A stretch of DNA of 36,933 nucleotides from an uncultured Clostridia bacterium (GTDB lineage Bacteria; Bacillota; Clostridia; Lachnospirales; CAG-274). Below are positions 548 through 36,177 of this stretch, in pieces (the first letter of the stretch is position 1; each line of letters opens with the position of its first letter). The DNA lies in contig CAMOYW010000001.1 of NCBI GenBank assembly GCA_946630405.1, positions 1 through 36,933 of the forward strand, given 5' to 3'. A program made the translations under genes and the position numbers. The notes under the pieces are model-generated. The model was given only the letters and a program-made list of their open reading frames with translations, searched no databases and was not told where the DNA came from.

Positions 548-555
548 GTTATACC

Positions 556-1332: not shown

Positions 1333-1335
1333 AGA

Positions 1336-1581: not shown

Positions 1582-1585
1582 ACTC

Positions 1586-2107: not shown

Positions 2108-2109
2108 TC

Positions 2110-5711: not shown

Positions 5712-5724
5712 TGTAATCCTCCAA

Positions 5725-7092
5725 TCATGTATAAATTTCGCAGCCTATCTTCCGATAGATCCTCAATCGCCGTTTGAAGCACTTTTGAGCGTATATAGTG
5801 TTATCCACAAAGTCATAACACCTTGCATCGGTCTTTTCTTCGTGAACTCTCGCTATCCTTCCGATAGCCTGCTCAATCACGGCTGAATCTCGATGTGGTG
5901 TCAGCATATACAACCTGGATAGTCGTGGTATGTCTAATCCCTCTTTTGCGAGATTGTAGGAAGCAAAAAGAATGTTAGCTCTGCCTTCCCTCATATCTTC
6001 GAGTGACGCCTGCCGTACTTCTCGCTTTGTCTTTCCGGTTATCACCCTTGCATCTTCTCTACCTATCATTTTGAATAAGGCTTCCGATTGAGATAACCTA
6101 TCCGTCAGCACTAATGTCGGGTGCGTTTCGTATGCGAGCATACTTGCAGCTATGTTATTTCGATGCACATTTTCAGCAAGGTAAGTGATGTACTTTGTGT
6201 AAACCATAGTGCCGTCAGCATCAAGAAAACAATCGTTGTAGCCTACATTCGTATAGATCGCTTCCACGCTCACGGGCATTACCTGATGCTCTATATCTTC
6301 AAACGGTACTTCGTAGGTTACATTACCCAAAATAGCGAATGTAGCACCTATCATACCGTCTGCACGATGTACCGTAGCGGATAACCCGTACTTGTATGGA
6401 GCTGCAAGGGTGTTTACTACTTTGTAGAACATACCAACCGATGTAGCCGAAGTGCATACACGGTGGCACTCGTCCACGATAACTATGTCGAAGTAGTTTT
6501 TGTAGCGTTCAAGCCCTGCAAAGTTAGCCATAGTCTGTACGGTAGCAAAAGTGATACCGTTGCCTATCTTCACTCTACCTTCGGTGCTCACCGTCAGCAG
6601 GCTCTTATCGAGATACTTCTTCGCCTGCGTATAAGCCTGGTCTACGAGATCCTTCGTATGAGCAAGCCACAAGGCTTTTCTCCCTCGCCTTGCTATCATA
6701 GCAATACCCATTATTGTCTTACCTGAAGCCGGACGGCTCTGTAAGATGCCGTAAGGGTGTCGAAGCATATTTGTTACCGCTTTCTCCTGATACCCTCGAA
6801 GCTCTAATGTGGATTTATAGTCAACCCTGGGCTGAAATTTCAGCCACGAATAACAGTTATCCTTCCGCATGAAGCCTTGAAGTGCGTACATATAACCGAA
6901 CGGTACATATACATAATCGTCGCCTTCTTCACGATACAAGCAAATCTCACGGGGTACATTACCCGTCCACTTACCCATACGCTTACGGTTTACATAATCA
7001 GGGTTAGCAAAAGTCAGATCCCGCTTAATTGCCTTGAGCACTTCAGGTGTCGGATATGAGATTTTGATTTCATTGTCTATTGTAAAGAACAT
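5725..7092 (-). CDS. Superfamily-2 DNA helicase (DEAD/DEAH-like, DECH box)
   Basis: 455 aa. It has LRGYQEKAV, Walker A RPASGKT and motif II IVIVDECH, plus a C-terminal helicase lobe (LFASYNLAKEGLDIP, QAIGRIAR). Confidence 0.85.
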   Translation of the reverse strand: MFFTIDNEIKISYPTPEVLKAIKRDLTFANPDYVNRKRMGKWTGNVPREICLYREEGDDYVYVPFGYMYALQGFMRKDNCYSWLKFQPRVDYKSTLELRGYQEKAVTNMLRHPYGILQSRPASGKTIMGIAMIARRGRKALWLAHTKDLVDQAYTQAKKYLDKSLLTVSTEGRVKIGNGITFATVQTMANFAGLERYKNYFDIVIVDECHRVCTSATSVGMFYKVVNTLAAPYKYGLSATVHRADGMIGATFAILGNVTYEVPFEDIEHQVMPVSVEAIYTNVGYNDCFLDADGTMVYTKYITYLAENVHRNNIAASMLAYETHPTLVLTDRLSQSEALFKMIGREDARVITGKTKREVRQASLEDMREGRANILFASYNLAKEGLDIPRLSRLYMLTPHRDSAVIEQAIGRIARVHEEKTDARCYDFVDNTIYAQKCFKRRLRIYRKIGCEIYT

Positions 7093-7496
7093 TAGAATAT
7101 CTCCCTAAATGTGAATGAACACTCTTTGATAGCTTCCGAATTCAGACTACGAACATTGTTATCAAGGCAATTACAGATAGTCTTAAACGGTATGAAGTAA
7201 ACTTCTTCTTCGTCCGGTAACTGAAGTGCAAAGAACGCTTCGTGTTGTGTTCTTTCAAGCCACCTGCTCATGGATAAGAACTGATTTTCTTCAACTCTCG
7301 TAAGCGGAAAACGGCCTGATTTGCAATCCTTTGCATCTATGATAAAAGCATCTACGCCTTTAACGGCTATCAGGTCGCACGGCTGCCCCGCCTGATTCTG
7401 CTGAAACAGATGTACCCAATATCCGTTCTCGTAAAACAAGTCCTTCAGCTTGACTTCAAACTCCGTACCTTCATTCTTATTACTGTTCGCTCGCAT
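7092..7496 (-). CDS. RecU-like Holliday junction resolvase
   Basis: The ORF track starts at 7673, but that N-terminus overlaps the upstream Cys-rich ORF. The internal ATG at 7496 (MRANSNKNEGTEFE...) is the likely start. The RecU-like pattern is GTEFE...CDLIAVKGVDAFIIDAKDCKSGRFPLTRVEENQ. Confidence 0.6.
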   Translation of the reverse strand: MRANSNKNEGTEFEVKLKDLFYENGYWVHLFQQNQAGQPCDLIAVKGVDAFIIDAKDCKSGRFPLTRVEENQFLSMSRWLERTQHEAFFALQLPDEEEVYFIPFKTICNCLDNNVRSLNSEAIKECSFTFREIF

Positions 7497-7695
7497 CGTG
7501 ATCTCCGTACTGTATGTAGTGGCTTTTGAATGGATAAGCCCTCTTATTCTGTTCAAACTGTTCTTCCGTAACCCTAAACGGGCAATCCTCATAGCTTGCC
7601 GGAAACGGCTTTGCTTCGGGTTTAAGGCATACGCACTCGTCTTTGTAGCCCTTAAAGTGGCAAGGCTTGTCAAATCTACAAATAAACATCTGCAT
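7480..7695 (-). CDS. Small Cys-rich protein
   Basis: MQMFICRFDKPCHFKGYKDECVCLKPE...CPF. Its ATG at 7695 overlaps the TGA of the upstream gene by 1 nt (TGATG). Confidence 0.5.
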   Translation of the reverse strand: MQMFICRFDKPCHFKGYKDECVCLKPEAKPFPASYEDCPFRVTEEQFEQNKRAYPFKSHYIQYGDHDASEQ

Positions 7696-7943
7696 CACCC
7701 CTTCGGAAAGTCCAAATCTTCGTTTGCTTGAGTAGTAACCTCTACCTTTACCGTACCCTTCTCCTGCATCTGCTTAATCAAGGCTTTCTGCTGCTCGATA
7801 GTCCGCTCTCTCGTTTTCAGCTCTTTAACGACAACCCTTGTATACAGATTTCTCGCTATACAGGTGGCTATCAGCATACCCGCCAGGAAGCCGTTAGTGC
7901 ATAGCAGGATTACCATTAAGCTATTCAGTAAAATCATATTCAT
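7695..7943 (-). CDS. Small membrane-anchored protein
   Basis: MNMILLNSLMVILLCTNGFLAGMLIATCIA forms an N-terminal TM helix, followed by a charged helix. The track start at 7949 is a TTG. The ATG at 7943 has AGGGGG upstream. Confidence 0.55.
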   Translation of the reverse strand: MNMILLNSLMVILLCTNGFLAGMLIATCIARNLYTRVVVKELKTRERTIEQQKALIKQMQEKGTVKVEVTTQANEDLDFPKG

Positions 7944-8079
7944 TGTCAACTAACCCCCTATCGTCAAGGCAAGCAAAGCACAACCGCTCGCCATTCATAT
8001 CCCATGTGTCTACCTTCATACCGCAAGCTTCACACGGGCAAGTGGTGAAGTCAGCAGCTTCATTCTTCAGTTTCTTCAT
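7921..8079 (-). CDS. 52-aa zinc-ribbon protein (below the ORF-track cutoff)
   Basis: Hand translation gives MKKLKNEAADFTTCPCEACGMKVDTWDMNGERLCFACLDDRGLVDNEYDFTE. It has CxC..C and CxxC pairs, and GGGAGAG lies just upstream of the ATG at 8079. Confidence 0.45.
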   Translation of the reverse strand: MKKLKNEAADFTTCPCEACGMKVDTWDMNGERLCFACLDDRGLVDNEYDFTE

Positions 8080-8194
8080 ACTCTCTCCCTTCAAGGTCGT
8101 TATTCTTTGATACCGCTAACAACGCAAGGCAAAACATACCCATTACCATTCCTACGGCTAAACCTACAAATAATCCGACAATAAATTCATTCAT
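8060..8194 (-). CDS. Small hydrophobic membrane protein
   Basis: MNEFIVGLFVGLAVGMVMGMFCLALLAVSKNNDLEGREYEETEE. Its ATG at 8194 overlaps the lipoprotein stop (ATGAATGA), which suggests translational coupling. Confidence 0.5.
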   Translation of the reverse strand: MNEFIVGLFVGLAVGMVMGMFCLALLAVSKNNDLEGREYEETEE

Positions 8195-8732
8195 AAACGA
8201 TAAATACCTCATGCTTCTGTGATCCGTATTCATTCGCTGCATCGTGGCTCTCGAAGTACAAATCTACGATTTTTCCCTTGACCGCACTTCCCGTATCTTC
8301 GCAGCGATAATATTGCCCGTCGATGTAAAGTAAAGTGCCAAGTGGTATTACGGAAGGATCTACGGCACAAGTGGTTTCTCCGTCTTTGTCGTAGTGAACT
8401 TTCGTGCCTGATGCCGTGATACCTTCAGCGTTAGCTCCACAACACTTCGTGCAAGCACAATATCCGGTGCAAGTGAATGTACCTAACGATTCCATAGCAG
8501 GTGTAGGCGTGGGGGAAGGTGTCGGTGTAGGCGACGGTGTAGGTGTTGGTGTCGGGGTTGCCGTAGGCGTGGGCGTAGCGGTAGGCGTAGGTGTTACTAT
8601 CTCCTGCGGTACTATCTCGCTCTCCGTTTCATTTGTGGAACACGCCGACAAAAATAAAAACCCCGATACGGCTATACCCAGGATAGCTACGATATTGAAG
8701 ATGCCCATAAGCTTAAACAATCTGTCAAACAT
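8187..8732 (-). CDS. Secreted lipoprotein with Pro/Thr linker and C-terminal 3D (RlpA/MltA-like double-psi beta-barrel) domain
   Basis: 181 aa. The signal peptide carries a lipobox (FLFLSAC). It is followed by a (TP/SP)n linker and a 3D-domain-like core: FTCTGYCACTKCCG...GITASGTK...CAVDPSVIPLGT...YRCEDTGSAVKGKIVDLYF. Confidence 0.75.
   Translation of the reverse strand: MFDRLFKLMGIFNIVAILGIAVSGFLFLSACSTNETESEIVPQEIVTPTPTATPTPTATPTPTPTPSPTPTPSPTPTPAMESLGTFTCTGYCACTKCCGANAEGITASGTKVHYDKDGETTCAVDPSVIPLGTLLYIDGQYYRCEDTGSAVKGKIVDLYFESHDAANEYGSQKHEVFIVYE
8500..8595. repeat. Low-complexity GGTGTAGGC-type repeat encoding the PT/PS linker
   Basis: The plus strand shows ggtgtaggcgt/ggtgtcggtgt-type iterations. 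These translate on the minus strand to TPTPTATPTPTATPTPTPTPSPTPTPSPTPTP. Confidence 0.85.
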
Positions 8733-9123
8733 AGCCTTTTCTCCCTACAATATAACCGCCCTTGAAATAGCTTGTCCTTTTCAAGTCGAATTCCCATGCG
8801 GTGTTTTCTTCAAGGTAACTGATTAAATTCTCATTACCTACAATCGCTATACGATCTTTGCTTACGAAGGCGTTGTAAGGCTCGATGCGTACCTGCTTTA
8901 AGACACGCTGCAAAAATTCTTCCTTCGGGCTATTCCAAATGTATTTGATGTAGTCCGAACTTCTGTCTTTGATTTCAAGCCCACAATCCTCGCACTTCGC
9001 CAGGAATTCCATACTTTGTGCTTTACCCGTAACAAACATCTGTCTGTTCTCTGAATTGCAACGAGGGCAATTATGAAGGTAGATGTACCCCTTGTACTTT
9101 CGCATCTTTGCTTCTTTTGGCAT
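8725..9123 (-). CDS. Zinc-ribbon protein with Lar-like (restriction alleviation) N-terminal domain
   Basis: 132 aa. The pattern CPRC-x20-CEDCG-x13-WN matches the Lar-family layout CPFCG...CxxCG...WN. AAGGAGAG lies upstream of the ATG at 9123. Confidence 0.45.
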   Translation of the reverse strand: MPKEAKMRKYKGYIYLHNCPRCNSENRQMFVTGKAQSMEFLAKCEDCGLEIKDRSSDYIKYIWNSPKEEFLQRVLKQVRIEPYNAFVSKDRIAIVGNENLISYLEENTAWEFDLKRTSYFKGGYIVGRKGYV

Positions 9124-9370
9124 TGTTATCTCTCCTTATATGAGCTTTCTCTATTGCTTCCCCTCTCTGCTTCGGTGTAAACAACCGCTTTGCAGGTATC
9201 GTAGAATATCTCGCAAGCATATCCTGCTCTCGAAGGGTGAAGCCCTTACCACCTAACGCCCTATGAACATAAGCCAAACTCCGGTTGATAACATCTGCTA
9301 TCTCTTGTGCGTTCGCAAAGTGAACATAAAGCATCGGGTATTCGTTATGTCCTGGTCGATATGATCTCAT
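9071..9370 (-). CDS. Putative small DNA-binding (HTH-like) protein
   Basis: 99 aa. NAQEIADVINRSLAYVHRALGG looks like an HTH, and the C-terminus is basic. GGGGG lies 6 nt upstream of the ATG at 9370. Its 3' end overlaps the next gene by 53 nt. Confidence 0.5.
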   Translation of the reverse strand: MRSYRPGHNEYPMLYVHFANAQEIADVINRSLAYVHRALGGKGFTLREQDMLARYSTIPAKRLFTPKQRGEAIEKAHIRRDNNAKRSKDAKVQGVHLPS

Positions 9371-9961: not shown

Positions 9962-10303
9962 ATGATTAAGAAGGTCGACACATTAGCAAATAGGCTATCT
10001 TACGCTATGAAGATGCAAAATGTAGGTGTTTGCGAATTGGAACGATCAAGCGGTGTAGCGAAGGGTTTAATATCAAGGTACATCAACGGTCTAAAATTTC
10101 CAAAAGACAATAACATCAACCGCCTATCCAAAGCCCTTCATGTGAACCCTGAATGGCTAAAAGGCTACGATGTACCGATTGCAGCTACACCCGTCAGCGT
10201 TACCACCGACGAAGAACGGTTGCTCGCCTACTATCGTGCCTTAACCGCTATTCAGAAAGAAGCTTTGCTCGATAAACTTACGGGGGATAACGAAGATGCC
10301 TAA
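9962..10303 (+). CDS. cI-like XRE-family repressor (no S24 peptidase domain)
   Basis: 113 aa. The HTH is MQNVGVCELERSSGVAKGLISRYINGLKFPKDNNINRLSKALHVNPEWL. It is divergent from the cro-like gene, with AAGGGGGTG upstream. Confidence 0.8.
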   Translation: MIKKVDTLANRLSYAMKMQNVGVCELERSSGVAKGLISRYINGLKFPKDNNINRLSKALHVNPEWLKGYDVPIAATPVSVTTDEERLLAYYRALTAIQKEALLDKLTGDNEDA

Positions 10304-11393
10304 AGCTTATTATGACGATGCACGGAAGCGGTGGGTTATTGATGGTCAAAAGGACGGTGTGAGAAAAATCTTCACATCTACGAAGAAGGGATTATCAGGA
10401 AAGCGAGAAGTCATATCCAAGTACGAAGCGTGGCGTGATTATGGCGGTGATAACCCTGCTCCTATCACCGTAGAAAAGGCCGTAGAGCTTTTCCTTGAAG
10501 ATGTATGTACCCGATATGGTAAAGATAGCGAAAGCTATCGTGGAGCGGAAATATACACCCGTGTATACATACTCCCTGCCTTTAGACACAAAGCAATAGC
10601 AAGTGTGAAGCTATCTGATTGGCAATCGCTTATAAACCACGCTAAACCGCACTCTAACCAAACAGAAGTGCTATCGAAGAAAACCCTTAAAAATCTCCGA
10701 TCCGTAATCAATCGACTTCAGAAGTATTGCTATAACAATTACTATACTGAAGCGTGGCGTGGTGAACTCTACATACCCGAAGGACACCCGACAATCGGTA
10801 AGGAAATTCTGCAACCTGCGGATATTCAGCGACTATTTGAACCGTCTAACCTATGGTATCACCCTTGCTTCCTTGTAATGATGCTATGTGGGCTTCGCCC
10901 AGGTGAATGTTTAGGCTTGCAAGTGGACGATATAAAAGACGGCATAATCCATGTCAGACGGGCTATAAACGATTCTAACCAAATAACTCACGGTAAGAAC
11001 CGGAACGCTATTCGTGATATACCTGCTCCGAAGCAGGCATTAGAGATTATCAATAAAACGATTGAGCGTAACAAATCTTGCGGATTGCAAACCAAGTGGA
11101 TATTCTGCGGATATTCGGGTGAACACGGTAATCAATCCACCTTGCGTACACAATGGTACATCTTGAAGCGTGAACGGGATCTCCCAGGTTGCCCGTATGC
11201 ACTCCGTCATACATTCGTATCTATCGTATCTGCTCAATCCCACATATCGGAAGGTAATCTGAAGATGCTATTAGGACACTCGAAGTCTATGGATACTTAC
11301 GGTGTCTACAATCATAGCGTAGACGGTGAATTGCAGAAAACGGCTGCCGTGATTGATACAACCTTCGAGAAAATAAGAAAAGCCGCACCGTGA
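10296..11393 (+). CDS. int: Tyrosine site-specific integrase
   Basis: 365 aa. Catalytic-region signatures are present: GLRPGECLGL (Arg I), YALRHTFVS (HxxR) and LLGHSKSMDTYGVYNH (His and Tyr). Its start overlaps the cI-like stop by 8 nt. Confidence 0.92.
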   Translation: MPKAYYDDARKRWVIDGQKDGVRKIFTSTKKGLSGKREVISKYEAWRDYGGDNPAPITVEKAVELFLEDVCTRYGKDSESYRGAEIYTRVYILPAFRHKAIASVKLSDWQSLINHAKPHSNQTEVLSKKTLKNLRSVINRLQKYCYNNYYTEAWRGELYIPEGHPTIGKEILQPADIQRLFEPSNLWYHPCFLVMMLCGLRPGECLGLQVDDIKDGIIHVRRAINDSNQITHGKNRNAIRDIPAPKQALEIINKTIERNKSCGLQTKWIFCGYSGEHGNQSTLRTQWYILKRERDLPGCPYALRHTFVSIVSAQSHISEGNLKMLLGHSKSMDTYGVYNHSVDGELQKTAAVIDTTFEKIRKAAP

Positions 11394-13551: not shown

Positions 13552-13572
13552 TTATCAACAGAAAATCTGTTT
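13552..13572. promoter_or_regulatory. Operator repeat copy 1 (TTATCAACAGAAAATCTGTTT)
   Basis: A 21-nt exact direct repeat of 13666-13686. It contains the perfect palindrome AACAGA-AAA-TCTGTT (13557-13571). Confidence 0.6.
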
Positions 13573-13665: not shown

Positions 13666-13686
13666 TTATCAACAGAAAATCTGTTT
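13666..13686. promoter_or_regulatory. Operator repeat copy 2 (TTATCAACAGAAAATCTGTTT)
   Basis: Identical to 13552-13572. The palindrome lies at 13671-13685, and the two centres are 114 bp apart. Confidence 0.6.
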
Positions 13687-17887: not shown

Positions 17888-20755
17888 TTAACCTCCGAAC
17901 CCGTTATTGCTCATTTGATAGCCCCTTGCTCTACCTTCAGCCTGCATCGAAGAATAAAGCTCTCTACCGTCAAGCATGATCTTGAATTCGTGTGTCCTAT
18001 CCTCGCTACTCAAAGCATTAGCAACCGCTTCGTAGATACCTACGGCCATATTACCGAACGAACTATCAGCCGTTGCTTGTACGGAAGCGGAAACTTCCTG
18101 ATTGATAGCCGGAAGCGAGAAGTTACCAGGATTGAGGGCTATGTTAGATACGCTATCCGTAACCGTTCTCGCCCAATTATCCATTACCTTCAGCGTTTCG
18201 CTTTCTTCGCTCGTTATACCGATATTGAAACCCTCGATTACAAAAGAACCCATTTCTTCAGCCCACTTTGAAGGTGAATGTATCTGAAATATGTTCTTTA
18301 AGGTGTCTTTAACGGTATTAGATGCTTCTCGTACCGAATCCTTCAAGTGGTTAAACGATGCAGGGCTATGTATGCCTTCTGCCATACCATTAGTGATGTG
18401 CTCACCGATAGCGTGGAATGTACTGTAATTACCGTTATTACTTGCACCGCTTGCAGCGTTGTTATACAGATTTGCACCTGCACTACGAGCTTCACCGCCA
18501 CGGTCAAAGATACCCTGATTAAACGAATATCCTATCCAATGTCCTACATTAGTGAACTCGTTGTAGTGTCCGTTATTGCTTATACCGTTTACGGCGGTGT
18601 TATATATGTCGTGGCAAGCGACTTCAACCTCGTTGTGCATACCACGAATTCCGTTCCTAAACGATACGACTACCTGATGCCCTATCGTACTAAAATGTCC
18701 GTACTCTCCGTTATTGCTTATACCGTGAAGCACCACATCGTGAAGCTCTACCGATGCGTTGTGAAGATCACCCCTTCTCGCTAAAAGGCCGTTGTGAATA
18801 AAAAGGCTTACGCTATTACCAATCTTCTCAAAGCCTGGCATATCAGATGTGAACGGTGATGTAATAGCACTCTTAATGTCCGTGATAGCATCGTCAAACT
18901 TCGGCTTTGTAGAATGTAATGCTTCTGCAAAAGCGTGTCCTACTTCTTCACCATGAACGCCTATCTTTGCGGTATCTACTAACTCGTCAAGGGCTTCGTT
19001 AAACTTGTTAGTCTGCGACTTCATACCGGATATGAAGCCACTAAACCACTTCTTACCTGCGTTAGCACTACCGCCACCGCCACTATGAGGGCCGAACGGA
19101 TTTTTATTATCCGTTTCAAACGGTGCAAACCAAGAACCGACGGTGCTATTTTTAAAAGCCGCTAATGCCGTCGGGCCGTATTCTTCGGCTTTTTTGCCAA
19201 CTTCCTGAAAACCAAGCCCAAACCACTTGAATACCAACTCGCCCCAAGACTTGTCGGCATCGCCGTTAGCTACGATAGCTGCACCTAATTCTTCAGGTGA
19301 TGCACCAAAGACACCTTCCCAAAACTTTGAGCCTAATGTCATTCCACCACGAATCATAATATCCCAAATGGAATGATCTTTGAAAACCTTTTCGAGATTT
19401 TCCTTAATCTCCTTCGCCTGATTTTTAATACCCTCACCGAAGAAGTCATATCCAGGAAGATTGAAACTTAAACCCGAAGAATAAGCCTTATCAAGCCCAC
19501 TACCTCTACCGCTTGTACCGTCGTCAGGATTGAGTACATTAAGCTCGTCTATACCTATCAGGTAATCTTTGAGCTTCTTTGCACTACCTGCCGCACTACC
19601 CATGTCGTCGGCAATATTGTCGTAAGCATCGGTTACATCACTATCAATCCACGCTCTATCGCTCATATCGGGTAATTCGTACCCTGCAAGTGCTGCAAGA
19701 TAGTTTAACCACTCTTTGAGCATCATAGCACCTGCTTGCAGATACGGAAGAACCTGATTGAGTACGGGAATGAATACATTACCCAATGCTCTTGAAGTCT
19801 GTACTAACTGTGCTTTGAATATACGAAGCTGATTTGCAGGATCGTTAAGTGAACGAGCAAGGTCTTGCTGCGTCCACGGAACTTGCTTCATAAGTGCAAT
19901 ATAACGAAGCTGCACCTTTTCAGCCTGCGTCATATCGTTGTAGTTTGCTATTACCGCATTACTGTTACTCTCGTAAGCTTCCGTGTTAGCTTCAATAGCT
20001 CCCGTCTGCTCGTTTATCGAGTAAGTCATTGTAGCGTAGTTAGAGGGATCTTGTGCCATTTGTGTAAGACGGCTCTGTGATAAGTCATAACCTACTCGTC
20101 TTACCGGCTCTAACTCGCCTGCAATAGCACTATTCAGCTTCTGCATAGCTTCTTCGATAGTGATGTTATCGAGTGAAGCCATATCGTAAGCCAACTGTGT
20201 TACATTTTGGCTCATATAAGCGGCTGCATCTGCACCGACACCAAAACCCTTGATAACGGTGTTGAACATAGCCTGATTACGCATGAATTCTGCAGGATCT
20301 ATACCAAGTGCCTCACCTGCATACTCTGCGTACTTCTTTGCATTATCGGCATACTCACCCATAGATACGGTAAACAGATTGAGTGTTTCCGTATAGTTCA
20401 TGCTCTCTAATATGCCGTTGCTGATAAGGGTTGCAAACTTACGAAGTCCTACTAAAAGTGCCGTCAGCTTGATAGCCGTTGTGCCTACCTTCGTAGCCAT
20501 TTTATCGAAGCCTTTTGCGGATTTTTCAGCAGCTTCACCCGACTTTCTGATTTTTACATCTATGTCGGTGCTCCCCTTACCTACCTCTTTCAAGGTAGCT
20601 TTGAGATTTTTCAGTTCGGAAGTCAATTCTCTAACATTCCCTGCTCCCGTTTTCAGCGACTTCAGGGATCTAACAAGTTTATCTAAACCTTTTGTATCTA
20701 CATTTGACGATACATTCAGCTTGATAGCATCTATATTCTGTTCGCTCATAATCAA
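17888..20755 (-). CDS. Tail tape measure protein
   Basis: 955 aa, helical and Ala/Gly-rich, with a hydrophobic segment (TTAIKLTALLVGL). It follows the chaperone pair and has C-terminal internal repeats. Confidence 0.9.
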   Translation of the reverse strand: MIMSEQNIDAIKLNVSSNVDTKGLDKLVRSLKSLKTGAGNVRELTSELKNLKATLKEVGKGSTDIDVKIRKSGEAAEKSAKGFDKMATKVGTTAIKLTALLVGLRKFATLISNGILESMNYTETLNLFTVSMGEYADNAKKYAEYAGEALGIDPAEFMRNQAMFNTVIKGFGVGADAAAYMSQNVTQLAYDMASLDNITIEEAMQKLNSAIAGELEPVRRVGYDLSQSRLTQMAQDPSNYATMTYSINEQTGAIEANTEAYESNSNAVIANYNDMTQAEKVQLRYIALMKQVPWTQQDLARSLNDPANQLRIFKAQLVQTSRALGNVFIPVLNQVLPYLQAGAMMLKEWLNYLAALAGYELPDMSDRAWIDSDVTDAYDNIADDMGSAAGSAKKLKDYLIGIDELNVLNPDDGTSGRGSGLDKAYSSGLSFNLPGYDFFGEGIKNQAKEIKENLEKVFKDHSIWDIMIRGGMTLGSKFWEGVFGASPEELGAAIVANGDADKSWGELVFKWFGLGFQEVGKKAEEYGPTALAAFKNSTVGSWFAPFETDNKNPFGPHSGGGGSANAGKKWFSGFISGMKSQTNKFNEALDELVDTAKIGVHGEEVGHAFAEALHSTKPKFDDAITDIKSAITSPFTSDMPGFEKIGNSVSLFIHNGLLARRGDLHNASVELHDVVLHGISNNGEYGHFSTIGHQVVVSFRNGIRGMHNEVEVACHDIYNTAVNGISNNGHYNEFTNVGHWIGYSFNQGIFDRGGEARSAGANLYNNAASGASNNGNYSTFHAIGEHITNGMAEGIHSPASFNHLKDSVREASNTVKDTLKNIFQIHSPSKWAEEMGSFVIEGFNIGITSEESETLKVMDNWARTVTDSVSNIALNPGNFSLPAINQEVSASVQATADSSFGNMAVGIYEAVANALSSEDRTHEFKIMLDGRELYSSMQAEGRARGYQMSNNGFGG
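18350..18770 (-). repeat. Three ~46-aa (~138-nt) tandem repeats in the tape-measure C-terminal region
   Basis: The repeats are GISNNGEYGHFSTIGH, GISNNGHYNEFTNVGH and GASNNGNYSTFHAIGE. Their DNA cores lie near 18701-18735, 18566-18595 and 18425-18455. Confidence 0.8.
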
Positions 20756-31192: not shown

Positions 31193-31227
31193 GAAACATT
31201 CCTCCTTTTCAGCCTTCATATGTCGTC

Positions 31228-31256
31228 ATAATAACTCACAATTTTGTGTTTCACAA
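31228..31256 (-). promoter_or_regulatory. Promoter TTGTGA-17-TATTAT with embedded operator CACAATTTTGTG
   Basis: The minus strand reads TTGTGA (31256-31251), a 17-nt spacer, then TATTAT (31233-31228). The palindrome at 31237-31248 lies in the spacer. It shares the blocks tcataataa and tttgtgtttca with the cro promoter at 9861-9883. Confidence 0.55.
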
Positions 31257-31425
31257 GTGCATCAACCCGAAAATTTGTAGCCTTTTGAATTTTTGCTTAA
31301 AAATTAAACAAAAGAATTTGAGGAAAATAGGGGGTGCAATTTTTCTTTACTATTTCAAAGAATTCTAATCAGATAAAATTCACTCTTAACGGCTGAATCA
31401 GGATCAGGGCAAATTCGCAGAATTT

Positions 31426-31439
31426 CACAAAATTTTGGG
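31426..31439. promoter_or_regulatory. Operator-like near-palindrome CACAAAATTTTGGG
   Basis: One mismatch from CACAA-N4-TTGTG, about 180 bp upstream of the 31228-31256 promoter. Confidence 0.35.
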
Positions 31440-31878
31440 TATTTTAAGTGAAAAGTGAGTTTTTTGAACGATTTTTCCTATAAGTTCTCCCTATATAGGT
31501 AGGTTGGCTTTGTATTTGAGAAACTTATAGAAAATATCGTCGAATAACAACTATAAAACTAAAAGAATTTTTAACATATTAAACGAGGTTCGTATCTGTT
31601 TTTCTACGATATATCTGCAACTTATTGTGAATTTGTATCGTAAAAAGAACGATATTCTTGTAAGAAAAACGAACTGAAGATTTGCTGATCGTCGGTGGGT
31701 GGAGAATGGTGGAAAGGGTTGATAAAAAAGGCTTTTAAGGGCTTCGGGTGATTTCACGCCCACCCCCGCCCCCTCTCCGATGCCTGGCAGCCCCTGGGGG
31801 TGTCCGGTCAAGTGTACGCCATACACGGACAATTACACCGAATTATAAAACGGGTGTATGTATCAAGTATAGATAACG

Positions 31879-31907
31879 CTCAAACCCTTTATTTTCAAGG
31901 GTTTGAG
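31879..31907. repeat. 11-bp perfect hairpin CTCAAACCCTT-N7-AAGGGTTTGAG
   Basis: Seen directly. Its 3' arm extends as GGTTTGAGGGT (31900-31910), whose reverse complement recurs at 32052-32062. Confidence 0.7.
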
Positions 31908-31992
31908 GGTGCTATACGAATTTGGAAATTCGGCAAAATTATTCTTTTGTGGAATTAGAACGGGTGTATCAATGAAATTTTACAGTTAGGAC

Positions 31993-32011
31993 TGCGCAAC
32001 TTTTGCGCAAC
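31993..32011. repeat. TGCGCAAC x2, 11-bp phased
   Basis: tgcgcaac-ttt-tgcgcaac. Each unit contains the palindromic core TTGCGCAA or TGCGCA. Confidence 0.7.
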
Positions 32012-32016
32012 AAATG

Positions 32017-32043
32017 ATTTTCATTTCACTTTCAAATGAAAAT
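32017..32043. repeat. 10-bp perfect AT-rich hairpin ATTTTCATTT-N7-AAATGAAAAT
   Basis: Seen directly. The 13-nt GATTTTCATTTCA (32016-32028) is repeated exactly at 32086-32098. Confidence 0.7.
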
Positions 32044-32126
32044 ATAATAAAACCCTCAAACCTATACCCGACAAGGCTTTCAGCCGATTTTCATTTCAAA
32101 ATTCAAATGTAACCAAATTATGAATT

Positions 32127-32155
32127 TGCGCAACTTTTGCAATTTGTTGCGCAAC
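32127..32155. repeat. TGCGCAAC x2, 21-bp phased, second copy inside the perfect palindrome GTTGCGCAAC
   Basis: tgcgcaacttttgcaatttgttgcgcaac. It shares TGCGCAACTTTTGC with 31993-32006. Confidence 0.7.
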
Positions 32156-32320
32156 TCATGTAGTATAATTCCATACCATTATATTATACTCAATTATAAA
32201 CGGCTTTAATTGATTGTAGATTGCCTTGTATGCTCTTTGCTTTAGTGAATGAATATAAATATATACCCGTATAGCTAACAAGGCAATACGGGCTAAATTT
32301 GAGGGGTTTGTTATTCCGGT

Positions 32321-32338
32321 GTTATTACCTGGAATTAT
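32321..32338 (+). repeat. 18-bp direct repeat GTTATTACCTGGAATTAT (left copy)
   Basis: An exact match to 35529-35546. Degenerate copies of CCTG(G)AAT(T)A lie at 32351-32359 and 35490-35498. Confidence 0.85.
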
Positions 32339-32373
32339 GTTATTGTCGATCCTGAATTATAGCAGCAATAATA

Positions 32374-32397
32374 ACACCCGCCTATTATAGCGGGTGT
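32374..32397. terminator. Hairpin ACACCCGC-N8-GCGGGTGT at the end of the cassette operon
   Basis: An 8-bp perfect stem 6 nt downstream of the 23-aa ORF stop. On the minus strand it is followed by TATTATTG. Confidence 0.5.
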
Positions 32398-32402
32398 ATA
32401 TA

Positions 32403-32474
32403 TCATTTTGACTTTTTAACAATATCTGAAATTATCCAAAAGGGAAACAATAGCAGTAATAACAATTCAATCAT
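32403..32474 (-). CDS. 23-aa hydrophobic peptide (below the ORF-track cutoff)
   Basis: Hand translation gives MIELLLLLLFPFWIISDIVKKSK. AGGAGG lies 7 nt upstream, and it overlaps the upstream ORF by 8 nt. Confidence 0.4.
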   Translation of the reverse strand: MIELLLLLLFPFWIISDIVKKSK

Positions 32475-32601
32475 GTTTTGCTCCTCCTACCTGGTATAAT
32501 TCACCGTTGATTATTACTTCTACATTATAGCCGGCGGTGATAGCATCTTCTATTACTCGCGTGATTTCTTCGACGGTGTAAACCTTGTTATTATATATCA
32601 T
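32467..32601 (-). CDS. 44-aa protein (below the ORF-track cutoff)
   Basis: Hand translation gives MIYNNKVYTVEEITRVIEDAITAGYNVEVIINGELYQVGGAKHD. Its ATG overlaps the clamp-like gene's TGA (ATGA). Confidence 0.45.
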   Translation of the reverse strand: MIYNNKVYTVEEITRVIEDAITAGYNVEVIINGELYQVGGAKHD

Positions 32602-34010
32602 GCGGTAATACCTCCATTTTGAATTGTATACACGGCGGCTATCAACTCGACACCTGAATTATAAATGTGCCCGCGTGCTTTTTGCATCTGATTTATCATA
32701 TCTTTGTGCTCGCGTGCGTATGCTTCCGAGTAATCAACGGCGGCGGGTGTCGGTGTATAATTGCGCTTTTTAAGTGCTACTATCATGCACGCGGTTTTGT
32801 ATACTGCATTATATATCGCTTCAGGGATAGCAGGCGCGGCGGGTGTATTGCCGGCGGTATCTTCTACCGCTTCAGGCGTGCTCGTATCGGGTGCAGTGTC
32901 CGGTGTAGGATCTTCAGCAGCAACGGGCGCGGGTGCTTCCGTGATGTTATCGGGCGCGGTATCTTCTACCGGTGCGGGTGCGTCCTGGATTACTTCAGCA
33001 GGTGCGGCGGGCTTTACCTTGTTAATAATATCTTCTACCTCGTACGGAGTAAACCTAATAGGCAATACAAGCGAATTATAGCCGGTGGCGGTGCTATCTG
33101 TAAAAATGATAGGAGCGGCCGTTTTATTATCTTCAAAATTGATTGTATCAGCGCCGCCTTTTAAGGCCGTGTATACATATTCCGGATTTAGTGCAACGGT
33201 AAAAATATACTCGTTATCGTTACCGGTGATGTTAAACTCTTTGTAACCGCCTACCGTGCTACTATCGAAGGCAACGATTAAACGATTGCCGGATAGCTTA
33301 AACAGGAGCGGCGCGGGCCTATATTTGTTATCAGGATCTTTAAGGCCGCGCATAGCATCAACGAATGATAGCAGCTCCTTGTTATCGAATGTTATACCGC
33401 GGCGGGTGCTATTAGTATTATAAATTGCTTCAAGGTTTATAAAATTGCCCGCGAGTAATCGCGCATAAAATACCGCGCCGGTGTCCGATGTGATACGGGC
33501 GTACTTTTCACCCGCTTCGATTGTTACGGCCTTTTTAAGCCCTCCAAACGCAAGCACGGCCGCCGGTATATTTATACTAACATCGCGCGCGGTGTCGATC
33601 TGGTAACGAGTAGCGCGAAAACCGTCGCACGCTTCAATATAACCGCCGCCAATATGTAAACCGGTTAAAATAGGGCGGGTGGTGTCTTTGCTCGCATAGT
33701 TTGCAATATGCTTTAGGATAGATACATCAACAGTACAAACGGGCGCGAACTCGTCAACGGGTAAATCATAGCAATCTGTATTAGTGGCAATCTCACCGCC
33801 GGCAAAAATGCCTGATTTACTTGTATAATCCAAGGCGGCGGGGGTGTATGTTTTGCCGGTATCCTGTAAAGCTGCTTCTACTTCAGCGGTGAAAAGTATT
33901 GATGCGTCGTCATTAAATGCGACTATAGCACCGGCGGGCGTAATGTATGCCGGTATCATGCTCTTCTTTGTGATCTTCTTAGCGATCTTTGCAACTTCTG
34001 TATTTTTCAT
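32598..34010 (-). CDS. DnaN-like sliding-clamp homologue with Pro/Ala/Thr-rich linker and extra C-terminal helical domain
   Basis: 470 aa. Clamp-like landmarks appear in the correct order and spacing: TTRPILTGLHI...ACDGFRAT (cf. ATDGHRLA), LLAGNFINLEAIY (cf. GxFPDY), ALNPEYVYTALKG (cf. FNxxYLxDxL) and SLVLPIRF (cf. VVMPMRL). Then comes PAAPAEVIQDAPAPVEDTAPD... and a ~70-aa tail. Confidence 0.6.
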   Translation of the reverse strand: MKNTEVAKIAKKITKKSMIPAYITPAGAIVAFNDDASILFTAEVEAALQDTGKTYTPAALDYTSKSGIFAGGEIATNTDCYDLPVDEFAPVCTVDVSILKHIANYASKDTTRPILTGLHIGGGYIEACDGFRATRYQIDTARDVSINIPAAVLAFGGLKKAVTIEAGEKYARITSDTGAVFYARLLAGNFINLEAIYNTNSTRRGITFDNKELLSFVDAMRGLKDPDNKYRPAPLLFKLSGNRLIVAFDSSTVGGYKEFNITGNDNEYIFTVALNPEYVYTALKGGADTINFEDNKTAAPIIFTDSTATGYNSLVLPIRFTPYEVEDIINKVKPAAPAEVIQDAPAPVEDTAPDNITEAPAPVAAEDPTPDTAPDTSTPEAVEDTAGNTPAAPAIPEAIYNAVYKTACMIVALKKRNYTPTPAAVDYSEAYAREHKDMINQMQKARGHIYNSGVELIAAVYTIQNGGITA

Positions 34011-34013
34011 GGT

Positions 34014-34184
34014 TTAAGCCTCCTTATTAATAATGTTTTCGAGTGTTTCCAGAATCTTCTTAAAATCCTCTGTTATAAAATGCGGGTATTTTTGCGCTAT
34101 TTCTTCAACGGTGTGATGCGAGTAATAGCATAAAGTATCTTCTATTGTTTCCAATTCTTCAGGGGTTATAGTGTATTTTTTCAT
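34014..34184 (-). CDS. 56-aa acidic protein (below the ORF-track cutoff)
   Basis: Hand translation gives MKKYTITPEELETIEDTLCYYSHHTVEEIAQKYPHFITEDFKKILETLENIINKEA. AGGAGG lies upstream, and its stop is 3 nt before the clamp-like ATG. Confidence 0.5.
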   Translation of the reverse strand: MKKYTITPEELETIEDTLCYYSHHTVEEIAQKYPHFITEDFKKILETLENIINKEA

Positions 34185-34202
34185 TGTCGAATACCTCCTA
34201 TT

Positions 34203-34859
34203 TTATCCGGTAATTTTTCCGGTTACTAAATCGACTTCGCAGGAATTACCAACGGCAAAATGTCCGTTATTATCGCGGGCGTACTTTGTAACCCTTACTA
34301 TTTTGTGATCCTCATTCCAGGTATCACCAACTTCATAGAAGCAATCACCGTAATTTAAGGCGGTAACATTTCCAACTATATCGCGCTCGCGGTAGCCGCC
34401 TTCCTTTTGAATGATATTTAATGCTGCTTCTTTTACTAATACAACGCCGGTATACTTTGCGCCGATCTTATAACGGTTTACCACCGTTAAAATATTTTCG
34501 CGGGTGTATTCCAGGTGCATATTATAAAATTCACGCTCAAAGGTAGAATTTCTATAACTTGATGTTATCGGCGTGCCGTCCTTGCAATATGAATGTATAA
34601 CATCATACTGTGTATCAAGATACATACCATTTTCTAAATCTACAGTATAAATGGGCTTTTTGAGCGGTGCGCCGGTGCGCTTGTTTTCCGTTCTATAATG
34701 CCAATGTCTACCCTGTAAAAACTCGAAAAACATATTGTATGTTTTGCCGTCATACATAATATCTATGTTTTCGAGTACGCGCACACGGTGATTTTTAATA
34801 TCCGTGCTGATATTAGCATCTTTACAACCCATTTCTAATAAATACAAATTGTTTTTCAT
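34203..34859 (-). CDS. Hypothetical protein (218 aa), first gene of the cassette operon
   Basis: An ORF with AAAGGAGG upstream. No family recognised by eye. Confidence 0.65.
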   Translation of the reverse strand: MKNNLYLLEMGCKDANISTDIKNHRVRVLENIDIMYDGKTYNMFFEFLQGRHWHYRTENKRTGAPLKKPIYTVDLENGMYLDTQYDVIHSYCKDGTPITSSYRNSTFEREFYNMHLEYTRENILTVVNRYKIGAKYTGVVLVKEAALNIIQKEGGYRERDIVGNVTALNYGDCFYEVGDTWNEDHKIVRVTKYARDNNGHFAVGNSCEVDLVTGKITG

Positions 34860-34913
34860 TTTGTTTACCTCCTTTTATTATGCCGTTATCGGCGGGTTGT
34901 TTTACTTGCCTTA

Positions 34914-34942
34914 ATTGTACTTTGTATGGTACGCAATTACAA
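34914..34942 (-). promoter_or_regulatory. Promoter TTGTAA-17-TACAAT for the cassette operon
   Basis: The minus strand reads TTGTAA (34942-34937), a 17-nt spacer, then TACAAT (34919-34914). The -35 lies inside the repeated motif TGGTACGCAATTACA. Confidence 0.5.
34927..34941. repeat. 15-nt motif TGGTACGCAATTACA (copy 1)
   Basis: Repeated exactly at 34999-35013. A 12/15 copy, TGGTATACAATTACG, lies at 35841-35855. Confidence 0.7.
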
Positions 34943-34976
34943 CTATACATAATAACTAATTCCGTACCTTCTAAAT

Positions 34977-34991
34977 TATGCAATTTGCATA
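34977..34991. promoter_or_regulatory. Perfect 7-1-7 palindrome TATGCAA-T-TTGCATA
   Basis: Located in the divergent intergenic region between the 218-aa and 129-aa genes. Confidence 0.5.
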
Positions 34992-34998
34992 CTTTTAG

Positions 34999-35013
34999 TG
35001 GTACGCAATTACA
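34999..35013. repeat. 15-nt motif TGGTACGCAATTACA (copy 2)
   Basis: An exact repeat, 72 nt from copy 1 and just upstream of TATATAAT (35014-35021). Confidence 0.7.
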
Positions 35014-35066
35014 TATATAATAAAAGCAGGTTATAAACCAATAATTAAATTTTGGAGGTATTAGAT

Positions 35067-35441
35067 ATGAAAAATTTTTCAAACCTTGAATTAAAGGCAA
35101 TCTATGACGGTTTAAACAACGGCTTGGAGTATAGCCTTGTTACAATGGAGCACGGCGGTTATATACACGGCCGTATTTATAAATCCGGTGATTATATTCA
35201 TTATCAGGTTCACGGAAGCAGCACAATTAGTAACACCGTTGAAGATCTGAAATGGTTATTAACGGTATTATTCAAGGGCTTTGATGATGTAACGCCGTCG
35301 GTATACTCTTATGAGATATTCAATTCTGTAGATTTAACCGGCCGGTATCATTCTATTGATGTTAGCCGTTATCATGACGAAATACCCGAAACGATATATA
35401 ACGGTGAATTCTATTATAAGATAGCAAACGGTAAAGCATAA
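35067..35441 (+). CDS. Hypothetical protein (124 aa from the ATG)
   Basis: GGAGG lies 8 nt upstream of the ATG at 35067; the track start at 35052 is a TTG. A strong terminator follows. No family recognised. Confidence 0.65.
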   Translation: MKNFSNLELKAIYDGLNNGLEYSLVTMEHGGYIHGRIYKSGDYIHYQVHGSSTISNTVEDLKWLLTVLFKGFDDVTPSVYSYEIFNSVDLTGRYHSIDVSRYHDEIPETIYNGEFYYKIANGKA

Positions 35442-35461
35442 CACATAAACGCACCAATAAC

Positions 35462-35486
35462 GCCCGCCCGCCGGCGGGCTTTTTTA
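35462..35486 (+). terminator. Rho-independent terminator GCCCGCC-cgcc-GGCGGGC-TTTTTT
   Basis: A perfect 7-bp GC stem with a T6 run, 21 nt after the stop at 35441. Confidence 0.8.
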
Positions 35487-35528
35487 TTGCCTGGAATACA
35501 TCACGCGCCGCCGCTCGTAGCAGGGGCG

Positions 35529-35546
35529 GTTATTACCTGGAATTAT
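35529..35546 (+). repeat. 18-bp direct repeat GTTATTACCTGGAATTAT (right copy)
   Basis: An exact match to 32321-32338. Confidence 0.85.
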
Positions 35547-35750
35547 CAGCAACGGCCGCCGGTGATATAATGTCGATATTATGCGAGTATTGCCGGCTCG
35601 CGATCCCGTGGAGCTGCTACCACCCGCCCCAATTTGTTATACTTTTGTAATATTATCAAAGCGTAACACCGCCCACCGAAGATCTCATTTTTACATATTT
35701 GTAAATTCCATTTTCCATTCCACCCGCCCGCTCGCCTGCGTGTGCGTGCA

Positions 35751-35796
35751 AAAGTCGAAAGTCGAAAGTCGAAAGTCGAAAGTCGAAAGTCGAAAA
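35751..35796 (+). repeat. Tandem heptamer (AAAGTCG)x6 + AAAA
   Basis: GTCG starts at 35754, 61, 68, 75, 82 and 89. Dispersed copies are AAAGTCGAAAGTCGAAGG at 36141-36158, AAAGTCGAAGG at 36538-36548 and AAAGTCG at 36593-36599. Confidence 0.9.
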
Positions 35797-35874: not shown

Positions 35875-36177
35875 ATGTCAGATCGAATTGTAGAAGTCGG
35901 AAACTATGTAACGCTTGAAGAATATGCAAAGCGTCATGGCATCACCGTCGGAGCGGTAAGACAGAAGATTAAGCGTGGCTATCTTCCGTGTAAGCGATTA
36001 GGCACGGGTAGGCGGTGCATGATCCTGATACGAGCTAACGAGCCGTGGGAAGCACACAAGCCAGGTGTGAAGAAGGGAAGCAAAGTCGCACATCGTCGTA
36101 CGAAGGCTGAAATGGAAGAATACCGTAAGCAGCAGGCCGAAAAGTCGAAAGTCGAAGGTGGTGAAAATGACGCTTAA
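35875..36177 (+). CDS. Excisionase/MerR-type (HTH_17-like) DNA-binding protein with basic tail
   Basis: 100 aa. VTLEEYAKRHGITVGAVRQKIKRGYLPCKRLGTGRRCMILI fits the Xis/AlpA-type winged-helix pattern. Confidence 0.6.
   Translation: MSDRIVEVGNYVTLEEYAKRHGITVGAVRQKIKRGYLPCKRLGTGRRCMILIRANEPWEAHKPGVKKGSKVAHRRTKAEMEEYRKQQAEKSKVEGGENDA

Follow-up and report, generated by a model that had tools for sequence, protein, structure and literature searches.

Does a segment of phage DNA that is framed by exact direct repeats, differs in composition from its surroundings, and carries its own promoters and terminators record a recent insertion, or is it an old resident of the genome in which it lies? The question is raised by positions 32321 to 35546 of the window analyzed here, a stretch of 36,933 nucleotides (nt) that forms the start of a 41,890-nt metagenomic scaffold (contig CAMOYW010000001.1; coordinates are identical in the two). 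The scaffold belongs to a temperate tailed phage of an uncultured family from the gut. A sequence-only reading of the window had described the segment as a recently acquired, excisable accessory cassette whose flanking 18-nt repeats are recombination or insertion scars. Comparison with related phages supports a different description: the segment is probably a resident, syntenic module of this phage family whose repeats are cis-elements and whose unusual composition is maintained. The most fitting description is an ancient clamp operon, self-contained and with a swappable accessory slot, whose edges carry copies of a regulatory motif.

The unit is placed between an early regulator block and the packaging genes, and its layout suggests a self-contained transcription unit. 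From a divergent promoter and operator region (34860–35066), transcription would proceed leftward through a variable first gene, a small conserved protein, a homolog of the β sliding clamp, and two tiny open reading frames (ORFs) to a terminator, and rightward through a 124-amino-acid (aa) gene with a terminator of its own. The minus-strand products are 218, 56, 470, 44, and 23 aa long, in this order, and their genes are separated by gaps of 18 nt and 3 nt and then by overlaps of 4 nt and 8 nt; both this coupled five-gene operon and the hairpin that ends it (32374–32397, minus strand; −17.9 kcal/mol, z = −3.4; symmetrical enough to serve both strands) are as the sequence-only reading had described them. 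The swappable first slot (34203–34859) encodes the 218-aa protein, which has no family match and whose single-sequence AlphaFold model is unusable (predicted local distance difference test, pLDDT, 37). It is followed by the small conserved protein (34014–34184; 56 aa in the window, 73 aa in most relatives, and 52% identical to the 56-aa protein of the distant relative L024), the 470-aa clamp homolog (32598–34010), a 44-aa ORF that overlaps the clamp stop by 4 nt (32467–32601; homologs in relatives, with 47% identity in the distant L025), and a hydrophobic 23-aa ORF (FPFWIISDIVKKSK; 32403–32474), last in the operon, whose peptide is conserved in the aligned relatives and in L023.

The opposing plus-strand gene (35067–35441) was likewise found where expected; it encodes 124 aa from the ATG at 35067 or 129 aa from a TTG at 35052, and ends at a GC-rich hairpin followed by a T-run (35462–35479, plus strand; −17.7 kcal/mol). 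Most relatives have such a gene. The intergenic region between the two divergent genes contains consensus promoter-like sites, in computational agreement with the divergent promoters proposed earlier, together with two copies of GGTACGCAATTACA (34928–34941 and 35000–35013). These are related to the TGTAATTNCRCAAAAC repeats of L013 (7091–7183 of that contig; three copies and two outliers, with TGTAATTNCRCA also present), and both sets are probably operators of some regulator. A further promoter-like site on the plus strand (TTATCA, a 17-nt spacer, and a TG-extended TATAAT; 35543–35571; 10 of 12 matches plus the TG) points toward a Cox-like gene and is conserved in the window lineage. No recombinase-like protein was found inside the unit when its products were compared with Pfam, PHROGs, NCBIfam, and PADLOC, as the sequence-only reading had anticipated, and in these collections no product other than the clamp had a family match. 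Searches for tRNAs and Rfam families returned nothing other than one sub-threshold SAM/SAH match within a coding region.

The age of the unit is evident from its distribution. The clamp has 21 cluster-level relatives at 54–96% identity, and the contigs compared here comprise near relatives (L006–L013 and L015–L023) and distant ones (L024 and L025/L026). In the near contigs the gene order is constant: early genes, Cox-like block, a 117- to 124-aa gene (missing in two, L019 and L023), divergent promoter region, first gene, a gene for 56–73 aa, clamp, a gene for 41–47 aa, a non-coding gap of about 1.2 kb, three small genes, and then terS, terL, and portal. The clamps of L024 and L025/L026 are only about 33% identical to that of the window, and these contigs have the same architecture, with a 1.5-kb non-coding gap before the packaging genes. 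No contig without the unit was found among the roughly 20 relatives, down to about 33% clamp identity. The empty site that an excisable element should leave was also sought as a bridging pattern in JGI metagenomes, where it matched eight contigs, all of them unrelated soil DNA; the relatives carry the unit at the same locus.

The unit has also diverged together with its surroundings. Within the window lineage the synonymous divergence (dS) of the clamp is 0.11–0.38 compared with 0.12–0.26 for core genes, and the clamp operon co-diverges with its flanks; the exception is L013, with a clamp dS of 1.74 and flanks of 0.25–0.7. Between the window and L015, dS reaches 1.36 for the clamp, 0.96 for terL, and 1.03 for portal (i.e., synonymous sites are saturated in island and core). 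One sequence in the clamp alignment, P0015, appears chimeric. Several contigs end near the island (L011, L016, L019, L022, and L023), but they break at differing places, and the ends are therefore not evidence for physical genome ends, an interpretation that was rejected. A separate 3,249-nt contig (P0012, GCA_016648615.1) extends from 34 nt past the 124-aa gene to 161 nt past a 47-aa gene.

What varies among relatives lies inside the unit and away from the 18-mers. Parts are lost or swapped (e.g., the first gene, the 124-aa gene, or the right-hand motif), and the breakpoints at which relatives diverge lie on either side of the first gene (about 34,150 and 34,900) and do not coincide with the repeats. 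The first slot holds at least five unrelated genes across relatives (218, 229/230, 128, 242, and 275 aa), and the 128-aa allele is 69% identical in L009 and L024, whose clamps are distant. Variable accessory or anti-defense slots behind a fixed promoter are known in phage genomes. The slot in this family resembles them in holding unrelated genes behind a promoter in otherwise near-identical phages and in sharing one allele between distant phages; unlike known anti-defense slots, none of its alleles matches a defense or anti-defense family in PADLOC, Pfam, PHROGs, or NCBIfam. It would carry exchangeable accessory genes, possibly with anti-defense functions.

The constant gene of the operon was described as clamp-like from the sequence, and its predicted fold and some of the profile searches agree. 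The 470-aa product matches PHROG 947 ("DNA polymerase processivity factor") with E = 9e-23, and the family profile matches β clamps in the PDB with E = 3e-11 over residues 94–322. With 15 family members as input, AlphaFold gives a model that is confident over residues of about 85–335 and 397–466 (pLDDT in the first block is mostly 50–89 and best over 200–330), and Foldseek searches with this model retrieve β clamps only (over 400 clamp chains of the PDB, the best at E = 6e-14 with probability 1.0). By predicted fold, the product is a β-sliding-clamp homolog, which would serve the phage's own polymerase. Its likeness to the bacterial and phage clamps (DnaN, PHROG 947) is confined to residues of about 85–335, and the matches span clamp domains II–III only. 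It differs from DnaN in having no Pfam match, in scoring 32.5 bits against TIGR00663 (cut-off 137.65), and in an N-terminal region of 84 aa that is not recognizable as a first clamp domain (pLDDT about 30–38). Between the two clamp domains and a conserved helical C-terminal domain (about 397–466) there is, in addition, a variable Pro/Ala-rich linker. Full-length relatives are few: an exhaustive profile search of 1.84 billion proteins returned just seven full-length representatives with E up to 1e-30.

The repeats have a different history at the two ends of the unit. The sequence GTTATTACCTGGAATTAT occurs exactly twice in the window, as originally reported, on the plus strand at 32321–32338 and 35529–35546, and no third copy exists in the window when up to three mismatches are allowed. 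Two matches to the 18-mer were found in 0 of 100 dinucleotide-preserving shuffles. Non-tandem exact direct repeats of 18 nt or more number just three in the window, and 3 of 300 Markov-1 simulated windows have any; shuffles and simulation together put the chance probability of an exact 18-mer pair at about 1% per window, in line with the low value first estimated. The other two repeats are a 21-nt pair in an AT-rich stretch (13552–13572 and 13666–13686, spacing 114 nt) and a 20-nt pair within a 955-aa ORF (18569–18588 and 18707–18726, spacing 138 nt). Degenerate copies just inside each boundary, also noted from the sequence, are present as CCTGAATTAT at 32351–32360 (plus strand) and CCTGGAAT at 35490–35497.

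On the right, the 18-mer is the distal half of a pair of motifs placed 56 nt and 102 nt past the stop codon of the 124-aa gene. The proximal copy (TTATTGCCTGGAAT; 35485–35497, plus strand) overlaps the T-tail of the terminator and is kept at the same distance from the stop codon in every relative that has the gene; the 18-mer itself abuts the −35 hexamer of the promoter-like site at 35543–35571. TTACCTGGAATT, at the right 18-mer, is invariant in six aligned relatives, L013 included, and both it and TTATTGCCTGGA are unchanged across the alignment. The pair is kept throughout the window lineage and in L013, and is present in L019, where the 124-aa gene is missing; in L015 and L017 all that is left is a degenerate proximal copy. 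On the left, 36 nt outside the clamp-operon terminator, an exact 18-mer is confined to the window and to L009, the relative with a 96% identical clamp. Elsewhere the left site contains two different CCTGGAAT-type copies (L006) or one weak copy each (L010 and L011), with motif copies recurring independently in L006 and L010; L013 has no left copy, and L015 no exact one.

Because the right-hand pair, which lies next to a terminator and a promoter-like site, is conserved and the exact left copy is confined to two genomes, the 18-mers are read as members of a family of short cis-elements (TTATTNCCTGGAAT), with copies placed just outside two outward-facing terminators, and not as insertion scars. 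The right-hand pair appears to be old and conserved, and the exact left copy appears to be a recent duplication or conversion confined to the window/L009 sub-lineage. The family would provide putative binding sites for a sequence-specific DNA-binding protein, which would tune or insulate transcription at the edges of the module, the right copy abutting the −35 hexamer toward the Cox-like gene. Folding of the 18-mer regions gave no significant RNA structure (z = 0 and +1.2). Phage regulators have operator or "box" repeats, of which the Cox boxes of P2 are an example. The motif copies resemble these in being short direct repeats near promoters and terminators and next to a Cox-like helix-turn-helix gene; unlike them, the 18-mer copies lie 3.2 kb apart, the tight array nearby has a different sequence, (AAAGTCG)n, and binding is putative.

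The unusual composition does not end at the repeats. The maximal-scoring segment under island and core Markov models runs from 31813 to 35753 (log-likelihood ratio 163); both 18-mers are inside this compositional island, and its edges lie beyond them. The foreign look of the segment was borne out by all statistics except one: plain GC content (0.416 for 32321–35546 compared with 0.437 ± 0.015) is not unusual, but the dinucleotide distance to the genome is 0.173 compared with 0.052 ± 0.0135 (9 standard deviations above the control mean, with a control maximum of 0.087), rho(CG) is 1.56 inside and 1.15 outside, and the palindromes CGCG, GCGC, CCGG, and GGCC have a density of 23.2 per kb inside, compared with 2.1 per kb over the 32 kb that precede the segment. 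Codon usage deviates as well. In island genes, 47% of Arg codons are CGC (8% in the core) and 45% of Leu codons are TTA (19% in the core), and the third-position frequencies of C and G are 0.29 and 0.17 (0.20 and 0.27 in the core). The same codon contrast is found in L006, L013, and L015, and CGC frequencies in L024 and L025 are 33–36% compared with 6–10%; across the family, CGC makes up 33–60% of island Arg codons.

This signature is a property of the DNA: G/C (S) bases cluster with each other, as do A/T (W) bases, whatever the codon phase, and they do so in non-coding DNA as well. The S/W lag-1 neighbor correlation is 0.18–0.25 at 32–36 kb and at most 0.09 elsewhere. Across codon positions 1–2, 2–3, and 3–next-1, the clustering is 0.18, 0.23, and 0.22 in the island compared with 0.08, −0.03, and 0.05 in the core, and it is 0.14–0.25 in the non-coding parts of the island. 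Among dinucleotide steps, CG and GC are raised (1.5–1.56), as are AT and TA (1.2); AG and GA are depleted (0.68), and so are CT and TC. No 10- to 11-bp periodicity of G/C versus A/T was found. All seven lineages have islands with a 20- to 200-fold excess of GC-rich oligomers, which are strand-biased (e.g., CCGCCG, 89 observed and 2.5 expected; CCCGCCG, 37 forward and 6 reverse). Translational codon selection was rejected as the cause because the signature does not weaken across codon boundaries or outside coding DNA. Since it is shared by lineages with saturated synonymous sites (dS about 1–1.4), the composition is maintained and is not a relic of import, and a recent foreign origin of the island is unlikely.

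The signature extends in part into the non-coding region between the operon and the packaging genes (31220–32320), where palindrome avoidance is also relaxed. A gap of 1.1–1.5 kb precedes the packaging genes in every relative, L024 and L025 included. In the window it contains an invariant block at about 31722–31800 (AAAAGGCTTTTAAGGGCTTCGGGTGATTTCACGCCCACCCCCGCCCCC), a strong hairpin (31879–31907; −18.5 kcal/mol, z = −6.8), and four copies of TGCGCAAC (at 31993, 32004, 32127, and 32148); it has no Rfam match and may accommodate an origin, an RNA, or a pac or cos site. A perfect tandem array, (AAAGTCG)×6.4 (35751–35795, plus strand; 6–9 copies in relatives), lies at the island's right edge, about 30 nt upstream of the promoter of the Cox-like gene. 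The heptamer also occurs at 36141–36156 and, in the distant L024 (1520–1653), at 11-nt spacing. The Spo0A "0A box" TGTCGAA serves phi29-type phages in sensing sporulation (PMC2731898); read as AGTCGAA, the array is one base off this box, and it may be a putative binding site for host Spo0A or for the Cox-like protein.

The module and its adjacent non-coding DNA form a compositional compartment that persists through the whole family and in which palindrome avoidance is weaker than in the core. In the core, observed and expected counts are 2/162 for ACGT, 0/86 for CTAG, 1/50 for CGCG, 5/48 for GCGC, 45/137 for CCGG, and 23/68 for GGCC; inside the unit, CGCG (24, with 22.6 expected) and GCGC (20, with 21.7 expected) are at expectation. 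Core palindromes occur at 0.21–0.54 (6-mers) and 0.55–0.65 (4-mers) of Markov expectation, with non-palindromes at 1.00–1.01, and island windows reach 0.71–0.77 and 0.80–0.91, respectively. Many 6-mer palindromes are missing, or nearly so, from pooled cores, which have, for instance, no CTTAAG (34 expected), TTCGAA (23), or CTCGAG (18) and only 2 GATATC (41). The relaxation recurs in each lineage tested; core and island values for 6-mer palindromes are 0.40 and 0.80 in the window, 0.44 and 0.75 in L006, 0.44 and 0.65 in L013, 0.35 and 0.66 in L015, 0.42 and 0.84 in L024, and 0.36 and 0.71 in L025.

The contrast for CGCG and GCGC is sharper and less general. Their combined density per kb, inside and outside the island, is 13.3 and 0.44 in the window, 14.1 and 0.21 in L006, 12.2 and 0.12 in L009, 14.1 and 0.77 in L010, 9.1 and 0.99 in L013, and 16.6 and 0.41 in L019. 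The cores of L015–L017 are not purged of these sites (3.8–5.0 per kb), and L025 and L026 are purged in both compartments (in L025, the two avoid 4-mers to the same degree); the core purge is thus lineage-specific.

In the window lineage, CGCG and GCGC are currently neutral in the island and are being removed from the core. Private sites (those found in one genome only) number 20 in the 1.46-kb clamp alignment of five genomes and 2 in four core alignments totaling 6.9 kb, with four genomes each. Control GC-rich 4-mers have 6–25 private occurrences in the core and 7–21 in the island, and the opportunity to create sites is equal, since about 2.6% of possible synonymous changes do so in either compartment. 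The purge is therefore ongoing, and a purely historical one was rejected. Deamination of 5-methylcytosine was rejected as its cause, because the substitutions by which the window lineage lost the terL sites seen in L015 are mixed (G>C, G>A, and C>T). Individual island sites do not appear to be functional elements, as their positional conservation (18 of 30) is at the background of 0.66. Nor is the island shielded physically from all restriction, a general shelter being excluded by what it avoids: pooled islands are depleted of CCGCGG (1 observed, 14 expected), GGCGCC (1/12.3), GGATCC (0/7.4), TTCGAA (1/10.9), and TCATGA (1/8.5) and of ACGT (0/32) and CTAG (1/21), while GCCGGC (59/60.7) and CGGCCG (41/41.7) are untouched.

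Phage T5 offers a precedent for avoidance that is uneven along one genome: its EcoRI sites are unevenly distributed, the first-step-transfer DNA being free of sites and the rest protected. The window core resembles T5, and phages that avoid restriction sites more widely, in avoiding sites to an extreme degree and unevenly. It differs from T5 in that sites are avoided by about 90% of the genome, the exception being a 4-kb internal module, and in that this module still avoids several 6-mers and so is not simply protected.

What keeps the two compartments apart? With modest confidence, the likeliest cause is a region-specific constraint or mutational regime acting at the DNA level, which regenerates G/C blocks, combined with frequent exchange of alleles in a recombination hot spot. 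Exchange by itself is a less probable answer. It would make the island a compartment of gene flow, whose alleles circulate among phages of hosts with different restriction systems and are never purged by any one host. The unrelated first-slot genes and the 128-aa allele common to distant phages are consistent with this, as are the high clamp dS of L013, the apparently chimeric P0015, and the equal 4-mer avoidance of L025; moreover, old shared avoidance (ACGT and CTAG) reaches the island and the lineage-specific CGCG/GCGC purge does not. However, clamp dS tracks core dS in the window lineage, which suggests vertical descent while the core stayed purged. In addition, the module always occurs in the same context, no potential donor (a genome of island-like composition along its whole length) was seen, and an imported allele with about 40 sites should itself face counter-selection. 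The S/W clustering, independent of codon phase, would be left unexplained.

A constraint or mutational regime combined with exchange is also ranked above the proposal that breaks are simply less harmful here, which is improbable. On that proposal, selection against sites is weak in the island because of terminal redundancy, late entry, or rescue by the RecE/Erf system, aided by the flanking repeats or by strand-biased GCGGGTG motifs. Palindrome avoidance is relaxed in the island in six of six lineages tested, CGCG and GCGC are currently neutral there but selected against in the core, the packaging genes are immediate neighbors of the zone, and the phage encodes both a RecE-like exonuclease and an Erf-like annealing domain. 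GCGGGTG has nine copies in the 41.9-kb contig, eight of them on the plus strand within 32390–34500, and occurs in the opposite orientation at 32375, 33509, 35621, and 35721. Pooled islands are nevertheless clearly under restriction selection at several of the sites listed above, and the 4-mers of L025 are purged equally in both compartments. The set of terS (GP3_package), portal, and Mu-F-like genes suggests headful packaging that runs away from the island. GCGGGTG resembles the lactococcal Chi sequence GCGCGTG and would be a putative Chi-like motif, and about half of the copies are Thr-Pro-Ala-Ala codons of the Pro/Ala-rich clamp linker. Another reading has some, though limited, probability: the clamp operon and non-coding DNA may constitute a functional DNA domain, common to the family, with its own constraint or mutational process (an origin-, packaging-, or break-repair-related state), in which host restriction is partly or selectively inconsequential.

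The cassette originally proposed, with its repeats as att-like sites or a target-site duplication, is very unlikely. It drew on the exact flanking repeats, the foreign-looking composition, and the unit's own promoters and terminators, and the 3,249-bp contig P0012 spans the unit almost exactly. The part of the proposal that called the unit self-contained holds, in that it has its own transcription; mobility does not, in that the unit is resident and syntenic. It is present in all relatives, with no empty site; the exact left repeat is restricted to two genomes, the composition boundaries (31813 and 35753) fall outside the repeats, and the signature persists beyond a dS of 1. A transposon or insertion sequence with a target-site duplication would likewise be flanked by short direct repeats, but the unit has no transposase or recombinase, and no terminal inverted repeats lie just inside the direct repeats (the left inner sequence, GTTATTGTCGATCC..., and the reverse complement of the right one, CGCCCCTGCTACGAGC..., share nothing). 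Unlike an integrase island with attL and attR, it has no core repeat at both ends in all carriers, and the only integrase is 21 kb away, beside the repressor.

The unit is closer to a moron, an independent transcription unit with its own promoter, terminator, and deviant GC content that is "more DNA" in some relatives and absent from others, and that is taken to be a recent horizontal addition (PMC3594210). It shares with morons its own promoter region and terminators, its position between two functional modules, and a composition unlike that of its neighbors. It differs in occurring in every relative, in a composition maintained across saturated divergence, and in having a replication-type gene aboard; only its sub-parts (the first slot and the 124-aa gene) vary among relatives as morons do. 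That the 18-mer pair is a meaningless coincidence is the least credible explanation of all: the region is dense in short repeats (23 direct-repeat families in 5.6 kb) and the four exact matches in an IMG/VR scan are chance matches in unrelated genes, but a pair is expected in about one window in a hundred, the right copy and its proximal partner are conserved out to L013, and motif copies arise again at the left site in L006 and L010.

Several points weigh against describing the segment as an old module with regulatory edges and a maintained composition. L023 has neither the right-hand motifs nor the 124-aa gene, with 218 nt of other sequence in their place, and L013 has the right motif and a deletion of the adjacent promoter. 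Promoter calls are consensus matches, with 20 found in the region and 17.5 expected by chance, and the binding of a protein to the 18-mer motif is an inference. Some of the private island sites could be imports from unsampled alleles and not mutations that arose in place.

The remainder of the phage genome is organized in blocks. Replication genes (556–9370, minus strand) encode a PriCT primase, a RecE-like exonuclease, a DNA polymerase with a fused Erf-like domain, and a helicase, and are followed by repressor and integrase genes on the plus strand (9962–11393, with the integrase at 10296–11393). Lysis, tail, head, portal, and terminase genes extend on the minus strand to 31219. To the right of the unit is the plus-strand block led by the Cox-like helix-turn-helix gene (35875–36177), and beyond the window are further minus-strand early genes (a D5-type primase and others). 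The 856-aa polymerase ORF (3141–5711, minus strand) matches PHROG 1252 (DNA polymerase) over residues 2–587 and PHROG 155 (Erf-like annealing domain) over residues 576–841, and appears to be a polymerase-recombinase fusion. The last 121 nt of the scaffold (41770–41890) match window positions 546–666 at 96%, and positions 1–547 (minus strand) encode the first 182 aa of a 207-aa NPPY-motif methyltransferase, whose L009 counterpart is 98% identical. Variants that have this gene and variants that lack it seem to be mixed in the assembly, and a circular or permuted genome of about 41.2 kb is probable.

Other insertions vary among relatives. A C5-cytosine methyltransferase gene, missing from the window scaffold, lies between the primase and the NPPY methyltransferase in some of them (L006, 747–3274; L009, 56–613), and that of L006 is interrupted by an HNH endonuclease. 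The terL of L013 (12812–15490) encodes 892 aa, compared with 554 aa, and contains a large insertion, and a NUMOD4-type endonuclease gene lies between the Mu-F-like and scaffold genes of L025 (12757–13338). Homing-type insertions seem to be common in the family.

Cultured phages offer no close comparison. Among 50,697 records, neither the clamp nor the region had a match by megablast or tblastn, and the best terL match among phage records is 40% identical (Clostridium phage Maintenon). Neither the integrase nor the clamp alignment retrieved a relative in scans of GTDB genomes, and a scan of IMG/VR with the clamp found one weak partial match. A distant family member is labeled Ruminococcus sp. 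at its source, and GGAGG ribosome-binding sites and sigma-70-like promoters are consistent with a Firmicute; the host is probably a Ruminococcus-like Firmicute.

Stretches of deviant composition in a phage genome are routinely taken for recent horizontal acquisitions. That inference fails here, because a sharply bounded island is old, syntenic, and actively maintained. Two parts of the finding merit following: the persistent compositional compartment, and the selection against CGCG and GCGC that acts on the core and not on the island. The second amounts to a natural control within one genome, as the core suppresses new CGCG and GCGC sites roughly 20- to 40-fold relative to the island on the same recent branches. 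Should the module be a functional DNA domain, it would tolerate, in this lineage, dozens of HhaI- and BstUI-type sites that are kept out of the other 38 kb, and the phage would be dealing with restriction regionally and not across its whole genome. If the cause is mechanical (DNA state, entry, or repair), the island would show how part of a phage chromosome escapes restriction pressure; if it is population-genetic (hot-spot exchange), it would measure how far recombination dilutes host-specific adaptation. The swappable first gene and the unusual clamp homolog are candidates for new accessory or anti-defense functions in phages of gut Firmicutes.

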